A stretch of DNA of 64,000 bases from Acidobacteriaceae bacterium (GCA_965199635.1 CBDASL010000001.1:1275422-1339421), one strand, 5' to 3'; positions 18,431 through 52,157 are shown, counted from the first letter of the stretch. The notes: generated by a model from the letters alone, not told the origin. Program-made: numbers and translations.

Positions 18431-18517
18431 GCCGGGATGGCGGAACTGGCAGACGCAGCGGACTCAAAATCCGCCGAGGGCAACCTCGTGGGGGTTCGAC
18501 CCCCCCTCCCGGCACCA
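18431..18517 (+). tRNA. tRNA-Leu (anticodon CAA), encoded CCA
   Basis: Acceptor stem GCCGGGA/TCCCGGC. Anticodon arm GCGGA-CUCAAAA-UCCGC. Long variable arm CGAGGGCAACCUCGUG. T-arm GGGGG-UUCGACC-CCCCC. Ends ACCA. Confidence 0.9.
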
Positions 18518-18573: not shown

Positions 18574-19638
18574 ATGGCTATGTCCAAGCAGGACCTTCTC
18601 CAGCGCACCATTGAGCACATCGACATCAAGCAGCATGACGTGACCGCGTTGGTGGACGCGATGGGGTCGATGGCGTTCAGTTCGCGGGATCTTCACCGCG
18701 CCGCGTCAATCTACGACCGCATGCTGCGTGACACCGACTGCGGAGTGATTCTGTGCCTGGCGGGCTCCATGGTGAGCGCCGGCCTGAAGCAGGTCTTTAT
18801 CGACCTGATCCGCAACAACATGGTTGACGCAATCGTCTCAACCGGCGCCAACATCGTCGATCAGGATTTCTTCGAGTCGCTCGGGTTCAAACACTACATC
18901 GCGGACGAGGTGCTCAAGGGCGGCACAGAAGACGGCACGCTCCGCGAGCTCATGATCGATCGCATCTATGACACGCTGATCGACGAGAGCGAACTCCGGG
19001 TCTGCGACGACATCATGAAGCAGATCATCGACAGCCTCGAGCCACGTGCCTACAGCTCGCGCGAGGTGATCCACGCCATGGGCGCCTACCTCGAGCGCGA
19101 GGGCAAGATCCCGGCGAAGGGTGGCGTGGACGGTCTTGTCTGGGCCGCTTATGAGAAGGATGTGCCCATCTTCTGCCCGGCGTTCTCCGACTGCTCCGCC
19201 GGCTTCGGCATCGTGGCTCACCAGCACGAGCGACAGGGCAAGCCGATCGTCTCATTCGACTCCGGCAAGGACTTCTACGAGCTGACCAGGCTCAAGATGG
19301 AAAATCCCACCACCGGCCTCTTCATGCTTGGTGGCGGAGTGCCCAAGAACTTTGCGCAGGATATCGTCGTCGCCGCCGACGTGCTTGGCGTTGACGCCTC
19401 CATGCACAAGTACGCCATCCAGATCACGGTAGCCGACGTTCGTGACGGCGCCCTGAGCTCCAGCACCCTCAAGGAAGCGAGCTCGTGGGGCAAGGTCGAT
19501 ACCGTGTACGAGCAGATGGTCTACTCCGAGGCAACGCTCGCCGTGCCGCTGATCGCTGGCTATGCCTTTCACAAGGGCGCAGCTCAGGCAAGAAGCGGCA
19601 AGCGGCTGTCGCGCGTGCTCGATCCGGTCAACGTTTAG
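18574..19638 (+). CDS. deoxyhypusine synthase family protein (bacterial DHS-like / homospermidine-synthase-like)
   Basis: MLGGGVPKNF and DGALSSSTLKEASSWGKV match the eukaryotic DHS ...EAVSWGK catalytic-lysine region. Confidence 0.8.
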   Translation: MAMSKQDLLQRTIEHIDIKQHDVTALVDAMGSMAFSSRDLHRAASIYDRMLRDTDCGVILCLAGSMVSAGLKQVFIDLIRNNMVDAIVSTGANIVDQDFFESLGFKHYIADEVLKGGTEDGTLRELMIDRIYDTLIDESELRVCDDIMKQIIDSLEPRAYSSREVIHAMGAYLEREGKIPAKGGVDGLVWAAYEKDVPIFCPAFSDCSAGFGIVAHQHERQGKPIVSFDSGKDFYELTRLKMENPTTGLFMLGGGVPKNFAQDIVVAADVLGVDASMHKYAIQITVADVRDGALSSSTLKEASSWGKVDTVYEQMVYSEATLAVPLIAGYAFHKGAAQARSGKRLSRVLDPVNV

Positions 19639-33465: not shown

Positions 33466-36400
33466 CTAGCCGGCAGTTAGCTTTTCGGTTTCTTCGGACA
33501 TCTTGGCGGTTCGGTCCAGCTTGTCCCAGTTGAAGGGTTTGCCGTCGATGGCGCGCTTCATGGTTTTAAGCAGGACGACGGAGAAGACCTGGCGGTAGCT
33601 GAAGCGCTGGATCCAGATGTGGACGAGGAGCCAGGCGTCGCCCTTGCTGGCGGGGTGTTTGCGCTCGAGGGCGAAGGCGAGGGCAGACGCGGCGAAGTCG
33701 ATGACCATGAAGGCCAGGAAGAAGGTGAGGAGCTTGATGAGGTCGTCGGGCGGCGTGGACTCGGGGTGGAAGTGGCGGTCGACGATGTACTTGATGACGC
33801 CGGTGACGAACATGAGATCGATCAGCGGAGAGACGAGGGGGAGAAGGATCTGGAAGATGATGATGTTCGGCAGGGCGAACCAGCCCATGGCGCGACGGGT
33901 GCGGATGGCGCCGAGGTGTTTGAAGACAGCCTGAAGGATGCCGAACGACCAGCGGAAGCGCTGGCGCATGAGGCCGTTCATATCGACGGGGGCCTCGGTG
34001 AAGGCGAGGGCCTGGTCCTCGTAGATGACCTCGTAGCCCTGCTCAAGCAGGTTCATGGTGAGGTCGGCGTCTTCGGCGACGGTGTTGGAGTGATAGCCGC
34101 CGCCGGCGCGGACGGCAGACGTGCGCCAGGCGCCGATGGCGCCGGGCACGACCATGACGACGTCGAAGAGGTCGAGGGCGCGGCGTTCGAAGTTTTGCGA
34201 GGTGATGTATTCGAGGGCCTGCCAACGGGTCCAAAGATTGACGCGGTTGCCGACCTTGGCATTGCCGGCGACGGCGCCGATTTTGGGGTTGGCAAAGTGG
34301 CAGACGAGGCGCGAGATGGCATCGTGGGCGATGACGCCATCGGCGTCTATGCCGATGTAGATCTCTTCGTCGGTCTGCTCGAGGGCGAAGTTGAGGGCTT
34401 CGGCCTTGCCGCCGTTGGGCTTGCGGAGGACGGTGAGGCGGCCTGACTCGATGTCCTTGGGGTAGGCGTTGATGCAGACCTCGGCGGTGCGATCTCCGGA
34501 GCCGTCGTCAATGACGACGATGCGGATGTTTTTGTAGGTGGACATCATGACGGAGCGGACGGTCCGGACGATGACGAGTTCTTCGTTGTAGGCGGGGATG
34601 AGGACGGCGACGCGCGGATTGTAGTCCGCGGTGGCGAAGGAGGGCCGTTTGCGGAAGCGGTCGATGACGGCGAAGAGGCCGATGATGAGCAGGCGCGCGC
34701 TCATGAGGACGTCGCCGACGAAGAAGACGGCGATGACGAGGTGATTGAAGGCGGAGAAGACAAAGAAGGCGACGGAGTCTGCGCGAGCCTGCCAGCGCTG
34801 GCGGGGGGTGAGCTGCGGCATGACCTGATCGCGGGTTTTGCCGAGCAGGGCGGAGACGGGGACGATCTTGTAGCCGTGGGCGCGGAGGGTTTCGATGAGG
34901 ACGGGAAGGGCGGCGACGGTGGGGGCACGGTTGCCGCCGCCATCGTGCATGAGGATGATGGAGCCGCGGGTCCAGGGGCGCTGCTGCATGGCGTCGATCT
35001 GCTGGAAGACGCTGTCGCTGATCTCTTTGGGAGTCTTGCGGGGGTGCTCGTCCCAGTCGTTGGTGTCGATCTTGTTGCCGACGATGACGTACCCGAGGCC
35101 CTGGATGCGGTCGACGGGGGCGGCCTGGTCGTTGGTGTCGGGCTCCTGATCGATGGAGTAGGGCGGGCGGAAGTAGAGGGGCTGAACGCCGAGTTTGGAG
35201 GCGAAGAGGCGCTCGGTCAGGGTGAGCTGGAGGTCGACCTGGCGATTGGAGATCTCGCTGATGTCGGGGTGGGTGAAGGTGTGGTTGCCGATCTCGTGAC
35301 CTTCGCGGTAGACACGCTGCATGAGGCCGACGTTGTTCTGGGCGACCTCGCCGATCATCAGGAAGGTGCCCTTGACGTTGTAGTGGTTGAGGATGTCGAG
35401 GATCTTCGGGGTCCACTCGGGGTCCGGGCCGTCGTCGAAGCTGAGCGCGACGACGCCTGGCTTGTAGCCGTACTGCTCGACCGTGTAGGAGAGCGGGTAG
35501 GTGTCCATGGATTCGTCGTCGACGAGCCGGAACTGGTCGGGGACGGTGGGGTCGTCGTCCATGGCGAGGGAGCGGGTGCCGGGTTGGGGCTTGCGGGTGA
35601 TGCGGAGGATGTCGCCTTCGCCTTCGGTGTCGACGTCGTAGCCGGGTTCCACCTTGGCGAGATCTTTGACGGGGTTGGCGCGTGAGGGATTGTCCCAGAT
35701 GCTCCACAGGGAGTCGTCTTCGCTGCCGAGACGCCAGAGGGCGAAGGTTTGAAGGCCGAGGGATCGGGCGGCGCGCATTTCGTTCAGGACGGTGACCGCA
35801 TCCAGGAACCAGACCTGGTGACGGACGTGGTCGTCTTCGTCGTCGTAGGCGAAGTGGGCGTTGAGGCTGTCGTCGTCGAAGTTGATGCGGGCGTCGGAGT
35901 CGGAAGCTGCCTGCCAGGCGGCCTGGGTAGAGAGCTCGCGCGCGGCGAGGGGGGCGAGGGCGACGGCCTGGTGAGAGCGGGACGCGTGGTGTGACGGGAG
36001 CGGGACGGTCCAATCGTAGCCGTAGCTGCCCAGCGAACAGATGATCTTTTCTTTGGGGACGGTCTTGAGGATGGTGCGGAGGTTCTGCTCAAACCACTCC
36101 TGGGCGGCGATCGGGCCGGGGGCGCTTTCGGTCTCGTGCTGATCGTAGTTCATGACCAGGAGGCCGTCGGAGTTGTCGGCAAGGAGCTTGAGGTTGAAGT
36201 TGTCGTCACCGACGGGGACGTTGACGTAGAGGCGGAGACCTTTGGCGTGGAGATTCTGGTAGAGATCGTGGATCAGGGTGTTGAAGCCGGGTTGGGCTGC
36301 AGGAGGGATCTGCTCGAAGTCCATCGAAAGGCCGCGGTAGTCGGAGTTTGCAGCGAAGAACTGGTCGAGTTGCTGCAGAAAGTTGGCGCGTGCGGCGGGA

Positions 36401-36999
36401 TCGGAGAGCATGGCACCGATCTCCGGCTGGAAGACGCCCTTAACGGGATCGTAGTTATTGACGAGCGGGAAGACTTCGGCGTTGACGCGGTTGTCGGCGA
36501 CGGTGCGACGCACCTTGTCTTCCTTGTCGACGCTGTGAACACCCGCATCGTCGACGACGGCATAGGACCGGTTGTCGATGGTGAACGCGGTGAGCGCACC
36601 GTTGGGGGAGACAACGTGGAGCCACTCGGGGAAGAGCAGATCGATCTGCCGGATGTGCTCTTTGAGTGAGGAGTAACTGGCCGGATCGTCGTCGACGTAG
36701 AAGGCGGCGCGGAGGCCTTCGCCCTGGTTGAAGGGAACGTCAGAGGGGCGAACATCGCTGTGCCGGTGGGCGGAGCGACGGAGTTTGCCGCCTGACCGGA
36801 GGGGGATAGGCGCGGAGTTAAGCGCGCGGTAGTTACGCTTGGGGGCCTGGAGGAGCAGCTCGGGGAGAGGCTTGATCCGAAGCAGGCCGATGATGAAGAT
36901 GACGCCGACGACGAGGCCGACAAGGGCAAAGCTGTCGAAGACGCGACGGAGTCGCTTCCATCGCTTGCGTTGAGGATCGTAGAAGACTGGTTTGCTCAT
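33466..36999 (-). CDS. multidomain exopolysaccharide synthase: TM anchor + GH18-like domain + CE4 (NodB) polysaccharide deacetylase + processive family-2 glycosyltransferase
   Basis: GH18-like: YRGLSMDFEQ (D-x-E) and LLVMNYDQHE...GPIAAQEWF. CE4: LSFDDGPDPEWT, GNHTFTHPD, YFRPPYS, IILMHDGG. GT2: VAVLIPAYNEE, VVIDDGSGDRT, GIDADGV, VAEDADLT, QRFRWSFG. TM helices before and after the GT2 domain. Confidence 0.85.
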   Translation of the reverse strand: MSKPVFYDPQRKRWKRLRRVFDSFALVGLVVGVIFIIGLLRIKPLPELLLQAPKRNYRALNSAPIPLRSGGKLRRSAHRHSDVRPSDVPFNQGEGLRAAFYVDDDPASYSSLKEHIRQIDLLFPEWLHVVSPNGALTAFTIDNRSYAVVDDAGVHSVDKEDKVRRTVADNRVNAEVFPLVNNYDPVKGVFQPEIGAMLSDPAARANFLQQLDQFFAANSDYRGLSMDFEQIPPAAQPGFNTLIHDLYQNLHAKGLRLYVNVPVGDDNFNLKLLADNSDGLLVMNYDQHETESAPGPIAAQEWFEQNLRTILKTVPKEKIICSLGSYGYDWTVPLPSHHASRSHQAVALAPLAARELSTQAAWQAASDSDARINFDDDSLNAHFAYDDEDDHVRHQVWFLDAVTVLNEMRAARSLGLQTFALWRLGSEDDSLWSIWDNPSRANPVKDLAKVEPGYDVDTEGEGDILRITRKPQPGTRSLAMDDDPTVPDQFRLVDDESMDTYPLSYTVEQYGYKPGVVALSFDDGPDPEWTPKILDILNHYNVKGTFLMIGEVAQNNVGLMQRVYREGHEIGNHTFTHPDISEISNRQVDLQLTLTERLFASKLGVQPLYFRPPYSIDQEPDTNDQAAPVDRIQGLGYVIVGNKIDTNDWDEHPRKTPKEISDSVFQQIDAMQQRPWTRGSIILMHDGGGNRAPTVAALPVLIETLRAHGYKIVPVSALLGKTRDQVMPQLTPRQRWQARADSVAFFVFSAFNHLVIAVFFVGDVLMSARLLIIGLFAVIDRFRKRPSFATADYNPRVAVLIPAYNEELVIVRTVRSVMMSTYKNIRIVVIDDGSGDRTAEVCINAYPKDIESGRLTVLRKPNGGKAEALNFALEQTDEEIYIGIDADGVIAHDAISRLVCHFANPKIGAVAGNAKVGNRVNLWTRWQALEYITSQNFERRALDLFDVVMVVPGAIGAWRTSAVRAGGGYHSNTVAEDADLTMNLLEQGYEVIYEDQALAFTEAPVDMNGLMRQRFRWSFGILQAVFKHLGAIRTRRAMGWFALPNIIIFQILLPLVSPLIDLMFVTGVIKYIVDRHFHPESTPPDDLIKLLTFFLAFMVIDFAASALAFALERKHPASKGDAWLLVHIWIQRFSYRQVFSVVLLKTMKRAIDGKPFNWDKLDRTAKMSEETEKLTAG

Positions 37000-50009: not shown

Positions 50010-50038
50010 TTGAAAGCTGTAGCGGACGCGGCTAATTT
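50010..50038 (+). promoter_or_regulatory. possible sigma70-type promoter for the riboswitch-controlled transcript
   Basis: TTGAAA (50010-50015), a 17-nt spacer, then TAATTT (50033-50038). Weak -10. Eye match only. Confidence 0.3.
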
Positions 50039-50122
50039 GTAACTTCGTCGGAGCGTGGCTTGCGTCCCCCTTCGGGCTGTGCCACAATCAATTCATTCCA
50101 GTCTGCCCCGTGCAGATTTGAA

Positions 50123-50224
50123 TTTCATGAAGAGTGGTCGAGGGACGAGCCCTGTGACGCCACGACAACCGGACAGACCACACGTACCGGTGTCACCTCT
50201 CTCCTGGCAACAGGGAACATGAGA
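50123..50224 (+). promoter_or_regulatory. SAM-I (S-box) riboswitch aptamer
   Basis: P1 UUUCAUG/CAUGAGA. Conserved core AGAGUGGUCGAGGGACGAGCCCUGUGACGCCACGACAACC. P3 ACCGG...CCGGU. GUGUCA junction. P4 CCUG-GCAA-CAGG. Hand-aligned to the T. tengcongensis / B. subtilis SAM-I consensus. Confidence 0.8.
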
Positions 50225-50331
50225 TTCGGAGTCAGAAGTTTCTAGTCTGCACCCCTTATCCCCGTCCCTGGTGCAGATTCCCCTGAGAGAGTTGGTGAAA
50301 TAGGCCGCACCCCTCCGCTACGGAGAGTGCA

Positions 50332-51621
50332 ATGGCGTATTCCTGTTCGACGTACGAGCTGCGGTGTAATGAATGCGGAAAGTCCTTCGGCAATCAGCCG
50401 CTCTCAGCCTGTGACGTCTGCCTGGCTCCCCTCGAGGTGCAGTACGATCTGGACGCTCTACGGTCCAAGGTCACACGAGAGACAATCCAATCGGGTCCGT
50501 TCAACATCTGGCGCTACGCTGCGTTGCTGCCGATTCCTGAAGGTTTTCAGCCCGACTTGCCGGTAGGGTTCACGCCACTGCTGCGCGCACGATCCCTTGG
50601 GCGACGCATTGGGGCGAACAATCTCTACATCAAGAATGATTCCGTCTGTTTCCCCACGCTTTCCTTCAAAGACCGGGTTGTATCCGTCGCGCTGGCCAAT
50701 GCGCAGGCCTTCGGCTTTACAACTGTTGGCTGCTCGTCTACTGGCAACCTGGCCAACTCTGTAGCAGCGCAGGCCGCTCGCCTCGGCCTGAAGGCGACGA
50801 TCCTGGTGCCGGCAGACCTGGAGCCGGCAAAGATCCTGAACACACTGGTCTACGGGGCACAGCTTGTCCGTATCGATGGCAACTACGACCACGTCAACCG
50901 GCTGTGCACGTTGATTGCTGACGAGTACGGGTGGGGCCTGGTGAATGTGAATCTGCGGCCATACTACGCCGAAGGCTCGAAGACGGTTGGGTATGAAATT
51001 GCCGAGCAGCTGGGGTGGCGTCTGCCGGACAACGTGGTTTGCCCGATGGCAGGTGGCAGCCTGATCCGGAAGATCCGGAAGGCCTTCCGCGAGCTGGTAG
51101 AACTGGGCCTGGTGGAAGATAAGCCGGTGCGCTTCTTTGGCGCACAGGCGACGGGCTGCTCGCCGATTGCGCACTCGGTGAAGAACAAGTTTGACTTCAT
51201 CGAGCCGCAGCGACCGAATACGATCGCACGGTCACTGGCTATCGGCAATCCAGCGGATGGTCCAGCGGCATCGATGATGATTCAGGAGACGGGCGGGTAT
51301 GCAGAGGATGTCTCGGACATTGAGGTCGTCTCTGGAATCCAGGAGCTTGCCGAGACGGAAGGGATCTTCACCGAGACAGCAGGTGGTGTGACGACATCCG
51401 TGACGGCACGGCTTTACGCGCATGGCCGAATTCACCCTGATGAGACGACAGTGTCGGTTATCACCGGCAACGGGCTGAAGACAACCGATGCGCTGGTGAA
51501 CTGCTATCCGCAGGAGGCCGCGATCCGGCCACGGCTGCAGGACTTCGCGGAGTACCTTGAGAAGCATTCGAAAGTGAGTCACGCCGAGGCTGAAAGCCTG
51601 CTGACTGTAGGAGTGAACTGA
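50332..51621 (+). CDS. threonine synthase family PLP enzyme (ThrC-like; MetM-like candidate)
   Basis: N-terminal Zn-knuckle YELRCNECGK...CDVCLAPLEV. PLP-lysine motif FPTLSFKDR. GCSSTGNLA. Lies downstream of the SAM-I aptamer. Confidence 0.85.
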   Translation: MAYSCSTYELRCNECGKSFGNQPLSACDVCLAPLEVQYDLDALRSKVTRETIQSGPFNIWRYAALLPIPEGFQPDLPVGFTPLLRARSLGRRIGANNLYIKNDSVCFPTLSFKDRVVSVALANAQAFGFTTVGCSSTGNLANSVAAQAARLGLKATILVPADLEPAKILNTLVYGAQLVRIDGNYDHVNRLCTLIADEYGWGLVNVNLRPYYAEGSKTVGYEIAEQLGWRLPDNVVCPMAGGSLIRKIRKAFRELVELGLVEDKPVRFFGAQATGCSPIAHSVKNKFDFIEPQRPNTIARSLAIGNPADGPAASMMIQETGGYAEDVSDIEVVSGIQELAETEGIFTETAGGVTTSVTARLYAHGRIHPDETTVSVITGNGLKTTDALVNCYPQEAAIRPRLQDFAEYLEKHSKVSHAEAESLLTVGVN

Positions 51622-51622
51622 T

Positions 51623-51901
51623 ATGGCTGTACAGGTGACCTTGCCCACCGCATTTACACGGCATACGGGCGGGCAGAAGAGCTTTTCCTGCGATGTTGCG
51701 AACCTGCCATCGCTGCTGAAATACATCACCGAGAGCTTTCCTGCTCTTGGGACCCAGATCCTTGACGAGGGCGGGCGGCTACGCCGCTTCGTAAATATCT
51801 ACATCAATGACGAGGACATCCGCTTCTTGGGAGGTGAGACCTATTCCTTCCAGGATGGGGACGAATTGATGCTTATTCCATCGATTGCCGGCGGAATCTA
51901 G
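51623..51901 (+). CDS. MoaD/ThiS-family ubiquitin-like sulfur-carrier protein
   Basis: 92 aa. ...FVNIYINDEDIRFLGGETYSFQDGDELMLIPSIAGGI has a beta-grasp pattern with a C-terminal Gly-Gly plus one residue. The ATG is 1 nt after the ThrC-like stop. Confidence 0.75.
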   Translation: MAVQVTLPTAFTRHTGGQKSFSCDVANLPSLLKYITESFPALGTQILDEGGRLRRFVNIYINDEDIRFLGGETYSFQDGDELMLIPSIAGGI

Positions 51902-52010: not shown

Positions 52011-52157
52011 ATGTTTCTGATTCTTGCGCTGGTTTTGCTTGTTCTCTGGGTCGGTGGCTTCTTCGTGATGCACATCAGCAGCTTCGCGATCCACTTACTC
52101 ATCATCTTTGCCGTGATCTCGTTCATCCTTAACTTCGTAACAGGCAGGCGCGCTTAG
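52011..52157 (+). CDS. lmo0937-family small membrane protein (48 aa)
   Basis: Hand-translated as MFLILALVLLVLWVGGFFVMHISSFAIHLLIIFAVISFILNFVTGRRA. Two TM helices and a basic tail. AGAGGA lies 5 nt upstream. It is shorter than any ORF listed in the track and so is not listed there. Confidence 0.6.
   Translation: MFLILALVLLVLWVGGFFVMHISSFAIHLLIIFAVISFILNFVTGRRA

Follow-up and report, generated by a model that had tools for sequence, protein, structure and literature searches.

A probable SAM-repressed MetM/MetO-type gene pair for homocysteine synthesis in an Acidobacteriaceae bacterium

The closest described systems

Sulfur can be delivered to an amino-acid precursor by a protein thiocarboxylate. 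In the CysM/CysO/Mec+/MoeZ system of Mycobacterium tuberculosis, a PLP-dependent enzyme of fold type II uses O-phosphoserine and a protein thiocarboxylate to make cysteine, for which an E1 enzyme and a JAMM hydrolase are required. For homocysteine, Krishnamoorthy & Begley reportedly described in 2011 a thiocarboxylate-dependent synthesis in Wolinella succinogenes (HcyS/MetY/HcyD/HcyF), and Hasebe et al. (Appl Environ Microbiol 90:e01247-24) are said to have described in 2024 the MetM/MetO pathway of Streptomyces albulus, which works with Mec and MoeZ. SAM-I riboswitches characteristically control methionine and S-adenosylmethionine (SAM) genes. Here, we describe a locus in an Acidobacteriaceae genome at which these elements occur together: a SAM-I aptamer, a gene for a ThrC-family PLP enzyme (metM-like) and a gene for a small ThiS/MoaD-fold carrier (metO-like), all on the + strand. 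The term window is used for the whole stretch of DNA analysed (64,000 nucleotides). We consider that the unit is probably a self-contained SAM-repressed two-gene homocysteine (methionine) operon of the MetM/MetO type.

The S. albulus system resembles the window unit in having a ThrC-homologous PLP enzyme adjoining a small ThiS/MoaD-type carrier, in the SAM riboswitch upstream (PMC12172450) and in the routine annotation of the enzyme as threonine synthase (GapMind 2026 preprint). Actinomycete homologs of the same layout are 50–53% (MetM) and about 40% (MetO) identical to the window proteins. The S. albulus system belongs to Actinomycetota and the window to Acidobacteriota; the window carrier ends in GG-I, compared with GG in Nonomuraea, and neither Mec nor MoeZ is encoded nearby in the 64 kb window. 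The M. tuberculosis system shares with the proposed reading a fold-type II enzyme, a phosphorylated hydroxy-amino acid and a ThiS/MoaD-fold carrier, but its enzyme is of the CysK/CysM family and converts O-phosphoserine to cysteine, its genes are clustered with mec and it has no SAM riboswitch. The Wolinella HcyS-Ala system (cited in PMC5764234) has an extra C-terminal residue that is removed by a metalloprotease, which parallels the GG-I end of the window carrier; its enzyme, an O-acetylhomoserine sulfhydrylase of fold type I, uses O-acetylhomoserine, whereas that of the window is a ThrC homolog with O-phosphohomoserine as its presumed substrate. Canonical ThrC (Thermus thermophilus, PDB entry 1UIM; Aquifex aeolicus, 2ZSJ; Bacillus subtilis, 6CGQ) has the fold, the PLP lysine motif and the presumed substrate O-phosphohomoserine in common with the window enzyme and is 32–35% identical to it over the catalytic domain, but is without the N-terminal Cys4 extension, the carrier coupling or the SAM regulation and falls in a separate clade (100% bootstrap).

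The aptamer, its leader and the switching mechanism

A search with Rfam RF00162 placed the SAM-I aptamer at 50122–50225 (+ strand), scoring 66.7 bits, above the gathering score of 44.4 (E = 2.3e-13), and matching over the full length of the model (1–108 of 108); with its own covariance model the window aptamer scores 105.7 bits. The aptamer had been proposed in an earlier reading made from the DNA letters alone (the sequence-only reading) and is borne out here, with every element that was named in that reading found: P1 (UUUCAUG/CAUGAGA), the GAGGGA...GCCC core, P3 (ACCGG/CCGGU) and P4 (CCUG-GCAA-CAGG). Among 35 homologous aptamers, the four-helix fold with its pseudoknot was 95.4% paired, compared with ~42% when the partners were slid, and compensatory changes were found in 12 pairs. 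The pseudoknot joins the P2 loop (CGAG, 50146–50149) to J3/4 (CUCU, 50199–50202); by covariation in the same 35 aptamers, its pair 29:91 is AU in 17, GC in eight and GU in seven. In the alifold consensus P1 is lengthened to 11 bp (50119–50129 with 50218–50228), so that the aptamer with the extended P1 spans 50119–50228.

Upstream of the aptamer, promoter-like elements are present at 50060–50088, comprising TTGCGT (50060–50065), a 17 nt spacer and CACAAT (50083–50088), with TGTGC just before CACAAT. In seven close relatives, three of which have a different upstream gene, TTGC and TGTG..ACAAT show little or no variation. The match scores under the threshold of a generic sigma-70 scanner; the segment is a putative promoter. 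A 5′ hairpin (AGUCUGC/GCAGAUU, 50100–50118) abuts P1, and in an RNAalifold consensus of ten leaders four of its pairs are maintained by double changes. It may stabilize the 5′ end or stack on P1.

The aptamer end lies 106 nt from the enzyme start codon, close to the distance of about 105 nt given previously, compared with 10–13 nt in the two actinomycetes examined; in the window this interval includes a hairpin around the Shine–Dalgarno (SD) sequence. The linker, a putative expression platform (50229–50306), contains a hairpin (CUGCACC, 50247–50253, with GGUGCAG, 50270–50276), C-rich tracts and a purine motif, GAGAGAG (50285–50291), and these motifs, GAGAGAG included, are conserved in the closest relatives. 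The conserved purine motif is complementary to the pseudoknot strand. The linker is followed by the SD-sequestering hairpin (GCAC-CC-CUCCG-CUA-CGGAG-A-GUGC, 50307–50330), identified by folding and in the alifold consensus, in which an anti-SD, CUCCG (50313–50317), faces the Shine–Dalgarno sequence GGAGAG (50322–50327). Its minimum free energy is −15.3 kcal/mol (z = −2.6), and an equivalent SD hairpin of different sequence is present in 15 of 15 terminator-less leaders. Two similar hairpins flank the aptamer.

In sister lineages a canonical terminator directly follows the aptamer. This is the standard SAM-off design and counts in favour of a SAM-off reading of the window unit, for which we infer the same polarity. 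The window leader itself contains no hairpin with a U-tract 3′ of the aptamer: a terminator scan agreed on this point with the sequence-only reading, which had gone on to suggest translational control. Of that suggestion, the missing terminator stands, and the SD lies in a conserved local hairpin; a SAM-dependent switch was not demonstrated computationally. Predicted SD accessibility under constraint folding was 0.33 with the aptamer forced and 0.23 with P1 blocked, no SAM-dependent change in accessibility was predicted by this method and the SD hairpin was predicted in both modelled states; no conserved alternative or SD-releasing helix was found by constraint folding and alifold. The element previously put forward as the anti-SD, CUCUCC within the aptamer (50199–50204), had to be abandoned. 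By covariation its bases belong to the pseudoknot strand in J3/4 and to the beginning of P4, and as it would be free only without SAM it has the wrong polarity for an off mechanism. In its place, modelling points to the nearer CUCCG (50313–50317) as the anti-SD that buries the SD. The switch in the window lineage is most likely translational, acting via the SD hairpin, possibly together with Rho-dependent termination.

Several other elements were considered and rejected. The linker hairpin (50247–50276) does not qualify as an intrinsic terminator, with a 16 nt loop and no U-tract, and it is missing in four relatives. Three alternative helices considered by eye found no support in constraint folding or alifold: a relay between GAGAGAG, the anti-SD and the SD, which lacks conservation and would make an ON switch; UCGGAG mimicking the SD, with only 5 bp; and a GCACCCCU duplication relay, with only 4–5 bp.

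Instead of sequestering the SD directly, the riboswitch of the window lineage might act on transcription, through termination (Rho-dependent or of a non-canonical kind) within the C-rich linker or at the beginning of the coding region. Transcription termination is used by the sister lineages, the part of the linker around 50250–50284 is rich in C and poor in G, UUUUCUU follows the conserved linker hairpin in one relative (L087) and the SD hairpin, forming as it does in both modelled states, may not be the regulated element. The lack of a U-tract terminator in the window leader and the 16 nt loop and patchy occurrence of the linker hairpin speak against it, and we regard this mechanism as possible but the less probable of the two.

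The gene pair and its proposed reaction

The metM-like gene (50332–51621, + strand) encodes a protein of 429 amino acids that matches Pfam PF00291 (PALP; 222.7 bits) and TIGR00260 thrC (278.5 bits, cutoff 167.1), in agreement with its earlier assignment to the ThrC family. Since the second score exceeds the cutoff, pipelines call such a gene thrC, as had been predicted, and all homologs are annotated as ‘threonine synthase’ in the databases. The enzyme carries an N-terminal CxxC...CxxC extension (residues about 1–55), and the PDB structures of ThrC align to it only from residue about 59. In an alignment of homologs, Cys12, Cys27, Cys30 and Lys113 of the PLP motif (S-F-K-D-R) are invariant, and Cys15 is nearly so. 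Sequence identities are 50–53% to actinobacterial homologs, 54–57% to cyanobacterial homologs and 32–35% to ThrC proteins of known structure. A neighbour-joining tree separated the enzyme clade from canonical ThrC with 100% bootstrap support and grouped the window enzyme with the actinobacterial riboswitch-linked and the cyanobacterial MetM homologs, with low support inside the clade (22%). The tree thereby gave the separation expected by the sequence-only reading, with actinobacterial and cyanobacterial homologs representing the MetM side, and by way of these intermediate homologs the enzyme is a putative ortholog of S. albulus MetM.

The metO-like gene (51623–51901, + strand) encodes a protein of 92 amino acids for which the ThiS/MoaD fold proposed earlier was recovered with PF02597 (ThiS; 40.2 bits, cutoff 22.5); Urm1 matches with 24.3 bits, and the SAMP1 and MoaD models match under their cutoffs. 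The stop codon of the metM-like gene (51619–51621) ends 1 nt before the carrier ATG, exactly the gap first reported, and the carrier is probably translationally coupled to the enzyme gene. The window carrier ends in ...SIAGG-I, the GG being capped by one residue, and those of relatives end in GG, GG-S, GG-C or longer tails. Among close relatives the residues after GG differ without apparent constraint, which fits a tail that is cleaved off, and the capped GG would imply proteolytic maturation of the carrier.

The pair was compared across a collection of genomes using the best 80 loci, all of which share at least 53% identity, a level that leaves Streptomyces out. A carrier homolog lies directly downstream of the enzyme in ~70 of these 80 loci, the pair being found in Acidobacteriota, Cyanobacteria, Nitrospinota, Methylomirabilota and Chloroflexota, and all six nearest relatives have a MetO-like ORF 3′ of the enzyme. 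Of the best 80 loci, 34 have a SAM-I aptamer upstream of the enzyme gene, as do two actinomycetes, Micromonospora and Nonomuraea; no other riboswitch class was found in the loci without SAM-I. The order in Nonomuraea is identical to that in the window (aptamer, metM-like, metO-like), its MetO is 39.6% identical to that of the window and a separate canonical thrC lies 9 Mb from the riboswitch-linked gene. A tblastn search against PLSDB returned no Streptomyces metM (it did return Nonomuraea, a chromosome mis-filed there), and a protein search from an actinobacterial representative returned Micromonosporaceae only. The gene thrB encodes homoserine kinase, the product of which is O-phosphohomoserine. 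In three loci (L064, L035 and L047) it comes after metM and metO inside the riboswitch-controlled unit, and in another (L032) it is fused to MetO; its presence in the same SAM-controlled operon indirectly supports a route from O-phosphohomoserine. Neighbour clustering of the best 80 loci gave no other conserved neighbour beyond the pair, thrB itself being conserved in four or five loci. No E1 or JAMM/Mec protease was conserved near these 80 loci, and the ~40 ORFs surveyed in the 64 kb window included no E1 or JAMM gene, neither thrB nor hom, and no further thrC or met gene. Against the MetM/MetO reading stand this lack of partner genes in the window, the NCBIfam thrC equivalog cutoff, which the enzyme passes, the activities reported for a Microcystis homolog (see below), the constraint folding without a SAM-dependent change in SD accessibility, and loci with the enzyme but without an adjacent carrier (Micromonospora L081, L035 and L072).

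The MetM/MetO interpretation of the sequence-only reading is strengthened by the retention of the pair across phyla, the clade apart from ThrC, the shared actinomycete layout and the recruitment of thrB. The Streptomyces precedent named in that reading was located in the literature: in S. albulus, metM is preceded by a SAM riboswitch and adjoined by metO (PMC12172450; GapMind 2026 preprint). By analogy with the characterized S. albulus system, the unit would work as follows. A dedicated promoter would drive transcription of the leader, the SAM-I aptamer of which would bind S-adenosylmethionine, and abundant SAM would turn off the expression of both genes. MetO would be made with one extra residue past Gly-Gly, which a JAMM/Mec-type protease encoded elsewhere would remove, and a MoeZ/ThiF-type E1, likewise encoded elsewhere, would adenylate MetO and lead to its C-terminal thiocarboxylate; the trimming step and both partner enzymes are deduced here. 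MetM would then take O-phosphohomoserine, eliminate phosphate and add the thiocarboxylate sulfur at the gamma carbon, and release of the product from the carrier would yield homocysteine, giving the overall reaction O-phosphohomoserine + MetO-COSH to homocysteine.

The 429-residue protein could alternatively be a true threonine synthase, perhaps the sole one of the organism, with the riboswitch tuning how O-phosphohomoserine is split between threonine and methionine and the ThiS-like gene an unrelated passenger. In plants, SAM activates threonine synthase. SAM-off control would run opposite to this logic and would starve the cell of threonine when methionine is plentiful. Near-universal adjacency and translational coupling to a GG-ended carrier in five phyla would also be unexpected of a passenger, Nonomuraea has its canonical thrC besides the riboswitch-linked gene and the enzyme clade stands apart from canonical ThrC with an extra Cys4 domain. 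The score above the curated TIGR00260 cutoff, the name given to every database copy and the finding of no second thrC in the window or at any locus examined weigh on the side of threonine synthase, as does a Microcystis homolog (51.6% identical to S. albulus MetM, with a neighbour 47% identical to MetO) that is reported to act in vitro as a threonine synthase, converting O-phosphohomoserine to threonine, and as a deaminase, without a clear role as MetM in vivo (PMC12172450). On balance we think it unlikely that the protein is a threonine synthase.

It is highly improbable that the pair makes some other sulfur compound (cysteine from O-phosphoserine in the manner of CysM/CysO, or else a cofactor or secondary metabolite carrying a thio modification) and that its SAM control is incidental to the general sulfur economy: protein-thiocarboxylate donors do serve different pathways (CysO, HcyS, QbsE, ThiS and MoaD), a cysM-like gene adjoins the pair in Nitrospinota loci and a second moaD-like gene lies near it in cyanobacterial loci, but the enzyme is of the ThrC and not the CysK/CysM family, SAM-I control is typical of methionine and SAM genes, the gene that joins the operon is thrB and not one of a serine pathway, and the neighbours of the window unit are housekeeping genes that are not conserved, with no biosynthetic gene cluster around it.

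Implications for Acidobacteriota and related annotations

Current understanding is not overturned. The literature already covers the pathway, how it is regulated and the misannotation: MetM, MetO, Mec and MoeZ are listed together, with the remark that MetM is often wrongly annotated as ThrC (GapMind 2026 preprint). The locus is most likely an acidobacterial example of a known system. The sequence-only reading knew of no characterization of the route in an acidobacterial-type genome; the literature searched contained no report for Acidobacteriota, and because both the pathway and the riboswitch had been published the novelty is only taxonomic.

A broader reading is that in Acidobacteriaceae MetM/MetO is the principal homocysteine route and has diverged in two respects, in a pro-protein carrier and in a SAM-I riboswitch with a replaced expression platform. 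We hold this joint reading tentatively and consider it somewhat doubtful. Within it, the carrier tails could be a single residue (Ile here), a Cys-rich stretch of 15–40 amino acids (CCSYCGxEECxCG) or a fused homoserine kinase, and an ancestral intrinsic terminator could have been exchanged for a platform made up of the 5′ hairpin stacked on the extended P1, the purine motif and the SD hairpin. If true, the pro-protein carrier would represent a ubiquitin-like processing step that gates activation of the sulfur carrier.

Across the lineages compared, one aptamer is combined with varied platforms, be it a terminator, an SD hairpin at a distance of 100 nt or an SD 10 nt from P1, a natural series in which the evolution of expression platforms can be studied. 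With this locus, a pathway first described in 2024 from Streptomyces is extended to a major phylum of soil bacteria, and the riboswitch supplies independent functional evidence. Among the proteins named ‘threonine synthase’ in Acidobacteriota, Cyanobacteria, Nitrospinota and Chloroflexota, hundreds are probably homocysteine synthases, and correcting this systematic error would change how methionine and threonine pathways are reconstructed, and which auxotrophies are predicted, for abundant soil bacteria.

The gene pair and its SAM-I aptamer

The metM-like gene (window 50332–51621, + strand) encodes a PALP/ThrC-family protein of 429 residues (PF00291, 222.7 bits), and the metO-like gene (51623–51901, + strand) encodes a ThiS-family protein of 92 residues (PF02597, 40.2 bits versus 22.5). 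The stop codon of the former lies 1 nt from the ATG of the latter. The Pfam and NCBIfam scores and the ORF coordinates agree with the sequence-only reading, which had described a ThrC-family gene followed at this spacing by a 92-residue MoaD/ThiS-fold protein; the likenesses of the latter to SAMP1 and MoaD were both sub-threshold. That reading also foresaw that pipelines would call the first gene thrC. The 429-residue protein scores 278.5 bits with the NCBIfam 'thrC' model TIGR00260 (cutoff 167.1) and is therefore named threonine synthase by automatic pipelines, and every one of its many homologues in Acidobacteriaceae (Edaphobacter, Granulicella; 80–93% identity) carries this label.

A SAM-I aptamer was located upstream at 50122–50225 (+ strand) as a full-length match to RF00162 (66.7 bits, gathering score 44.4, E = 2.3e-13), with the helices and core by which it had been proposed all present. 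A tRNA was the only other match in the Rfam scan of the 64 kb.

The pair stands isolated. Genes for PurH, a TPR protein, a dGTPase-like HD protein and an NAD-dependent epimerase lie upstream on the same strand, and lon, clpX and tig lie 3′ of the pair on the opposite strand. No E1 (ThiF/MoeZ), JAMM protease, hom, thrB, second thrC or other methionine gene was found among the approximately 40 ORFs of the 64 kb window. A small hydrophobic ORF (MFLILALVLLVLWVGGFFVMH...; about 52011–52157, + strand) lies 3′ of metO; its counterpart in six relatives (48 residues, named DUF5670) is kept between metO and lon. The window also holds a tRNA with a long variable arm (18431–18514), a bacterial deoxyhypusine-synthase-family gene (18574–19638; PF01916, 300 bits) and a gene for a 1177-residue protein with GH18, polysaccharide deacetylase and GT2 domains (33466–36999).

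Conservation of the pair and separation from canonical ThrC

Species-representative genomes were scanned with a diverse alignment as the query. The best 80 loci belong to Acidobacteriota (61–80% identity), Cyanobacteria (53–57%), Nitrospinota, Methylomirabilota and Chloroflexota. A MetO-like ORF directly follows the enzyme gene in about 70 of these 80, several of the exceptions being incomplete contigs, and also in all six nearest relatives, which were fetched separately. Beyond the pair, neighbouring genes are not kept among the 80 loci, with the single exception of homoserine kinase (thrB; TIGR00191, up to 253 bits). In Acidobacteriota this gene follows metM–metO in L064 (7634–8545) and lies 3′ of metM in L035 and L047. 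A 437-residue ORF of a MAG from Limnocylindrales (Chloroflexota; L032:7267–8580) joins MetO in frame, right behind the GG, to a complete homoserine kinase, an arrangement that resembles a ubiquitin-fusion protein; an assembly error is another possibility. All four homoserine kinase loci carry the riboswitch. Since homoserine kinase makes O-phosphohomoserine, placing it under SAM control is sensible only if O-phosphohomoserine feeds methionine synthesis in those loci.

Two Nitrospinota loci (L062:8396–9409 and L080:8354–9400) have a cysM/cysK-like cysteine synthase gene adjoining metM–metO, which hints that the carrier may be common to cysteine and homocysteine synthesis. Nine cyanobacterial loci (e.g. 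L050:1087–1353) have a second small moaD-like gene, GG-ended, upstream of the metM-like gene.

The top PDB matches of the enzyme are canonical threonine synthases (2ZSJ, 1UIM, 6CGQ and 2D1F; E of about 1e-45), which align only from about residue 59 onward, with 32–35% identity. The N-terminal 55 or so residues contain a CxxC...CxxC motif, with Cys12, Cys27 and Cys30 invariant and Cys15 nearly so in a 13-member alignment (39–81% identity); this extension may form a zinc ribbon. A neighbour-joining tree was built from 62 sequences, and 100% of bootstrap replicates split the whole extended family from the ThrC of Thermus, Aquifex and Bacillus. The window protein grouped tightly with proteins of other Acidobacteriota, of Nitrospinota and Chloroflexota, with the four from actinobacteria and with the cyanobacterial MetM homologues; support for this inner group as such was low.

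Two actinomycete loci were examined. That of Nonomuraea gerenzanensis repeats the order of the window: aptamer (68.7 bits), enzyme gene, then a MetO-like gene whose product is 39.6% identical to that of the window. At 11.85 Mb, the PLSDB entry 'Nonomuraea gerenzanensis plasmid I' (NZ_LT559118.1) is chromosome-like and mis-filed as a plasmid. When this whole chromosome was searched, a canonical thrC was found 9 Mb away from the metM locus, its product 61.8% identical to Thermus ThrC, so the riboswitch-linked gene there is a paralogue of the real thrC. In Micromonospora coriariae (L081:5855–7287) 10 nt separate the end of a SAM-I aptamer (69.2 bits) from the start codon of the metM-like gene. 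No carrier gene adjoins the enzyme gene at this locus; in this species the carrier either is encoded elsewhere or can be done without.

Riboswitch distribution and expression platform

A covariance model made from seven aptamers was used on the 80 best loci. An aptamer was found 90–255 nt 5′ of the enzyme gene in 34, all from Acidobacteriota except for the two from Chloroflexota; no Rfam riboswitch of any class was found at the cyanobacterial, Nitrospinota, Methylomirabilota and approximately ten of the Acidobacteriota loci. Across 35 aptamers 95.4% of positions expected to pair did so, compared with about 42% when the partners were slid as a control, and 12 pairs showed compensatory changes. 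The pseudoknot between the P2 loop and J3/4 covaries (central pair AU in 17, GC in eight and GU in seven). Three RNA elements at related loci (L018:864–1052, L018:12954–12999 and L028:2497–2724), namely a lysine riboswitch, an Acido-Lenti-1 RNA and a group II intron domain, have no bearing on this finding.

In about half of the leaders with an aptamer, those of sister lineages, a classic intrinsic terminator follows soon after it (e.g. GCCUCUUUUCC-loop-GGAAAAGGGGUUUUGU), scanner-confirmed in L064 and L047. An intermediate hairpin precedes this terminator, and the hairpin's base can be extended by pairing of the P1 3′ strand with the terminator 5′ strand; this layout is the standard SAM-off design. 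No hairpin-plus-U-tract terminator was found 3′ of the aptamer in the window or in the leaders of its closest subclade. These leaders share conserved linker motifs. A promoter-like element (TTGCGT, 17 nt spacer, CACAAT; from 50060, + strand) is conserved across relatives, including those with another gene upstream, and a 5′ hairpin (50100–50118, + strand) with compensatory changes abuts and may stack on P1, which is itself extended to 11 bp. Just before the AUG, a further hairpin (50307–50330, + strand; −15.3 kcal mol−1, z = −2.6) buries the Shine–Dalgarno sequence. It recurs in all 15 terminator-less leaders through at least four different sequence solutions, which argues for selection.

The absence of a terminator had been taken as a hint of translational control. 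The absence stands, and translational control would be the most likely mechanism, with roughly an even chance of being correct. Folding shows no SAM-dependent release of the Shine–Dalgarno sequence: its predicted accessibility was 0.33 with the aptamer forced and 0.23 with it blocked, a small change in the wrong direction. Folding of the leader 3′ half across relatives gave no conserved helix that frees it, and neither constraint nor comparative folding found a ligand-dependent switch in the window leader. Termination by Rho or in another non-canonical way is less probable than translational control but has to be taken seriously as an alternative. The proposed pairing of CUCUCC (50199–50204) with the Shine–Dalgarno sequence was rejected, because these bases form the covarying pseudoknot strand (CUCU, 50199–50202) and the first two bases of P4, are occupied when SAM is bound and can reach the Shine–Dalgarno sequence only in the ligand-free state, the wrong polarity for repression of a methionine gene. 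The hairpins flanking the aptamer (50100–50118 and 50244–50280) have nearly the same arms (AGUCUGC.../...GCAGAUU), so that cross-pairing is possible, and GCACCCCU occurs twice in the leader (50249–50256 and 50308–50315).

Carrier C-termini and relation to the MetM/MetO pathway

MetO ends exactly in ...AGG in cyanobacteria and Nonomuraea, and in ...SIAGG-I in the window. Its closest relatives end in GG-I, GG-S, GG-C, GG or GG plus 15 residues, and other Acidobacteriota proteins extend 1–17 residues beyond GG. One Acidobacteriaceae subclade (six loci, e.g. L004:7253–7627; also L003, L007, L008, L009 and L010) has a Cys-rich tail of 15–40 residues after the GG, finishing CCSYCG(Q/R)EECxCG(D), which looks like a metal- or persulfide-binding extension of a sulfur-carrier pro-protein. 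Free variation beyond an invariant GG is as expected if the tail is cut off, and MetO would then be processed. HcyS-Ala of Wolinella is a precedent for removal of a carrier tail. A second is the requirement of MetO for the Mec hydrolase in its maturation; Mec is listed as a pathway step with the MetO carrier, the MoeZ sulfur ligase and MetM (GapMind 2026 preprint), and the same source remarks that MetM is often misannotated as ThrC.

The window pair probably performs MetM/MetO-type homocysteine synthesis, as first proposed from the sequence; carrier linkage, the tree, the Nonomuraea layout and thrB agree on this as independent comparative lines. Synthesis of homocysteine from O-phosphohomoserine by a thiocarboxylate route was reportedly described in Streptomyces albulus by Hasebe and coworkers in 2024. 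A SAM riboswitch lies upstream of S. albulus metM (PMC12172450). The window locus shares this riboswitch and the carrier neighbour with S. albulus, to whose MetM its enzyme is provisionally tied through the actinobacterial and cyanobacterial homologues. Homologues are stated to occur in cyanobacteria; the Microcystis 'ThrC' shares 51.6% identity with MetM, and its neighbour 47% with MetO (PMC12172450). A main reservation is that both threonine synthase and deaminase activities have been reported in vitro for the Microcystis homologue (PMC12172450). The S. albulus architecture being already in print, the three-part architecture of the sequence-only reading is the published one; we found no mention of it in Acidobacteria in the searchable literature. 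The window locus adds a new member, from Acidobacteriota, to a published system and is not a new kind of system. It is of value for correcting annotation and for the natural diversity of riboswitch platforms and of carrier C-termini that the comparison brought to light.
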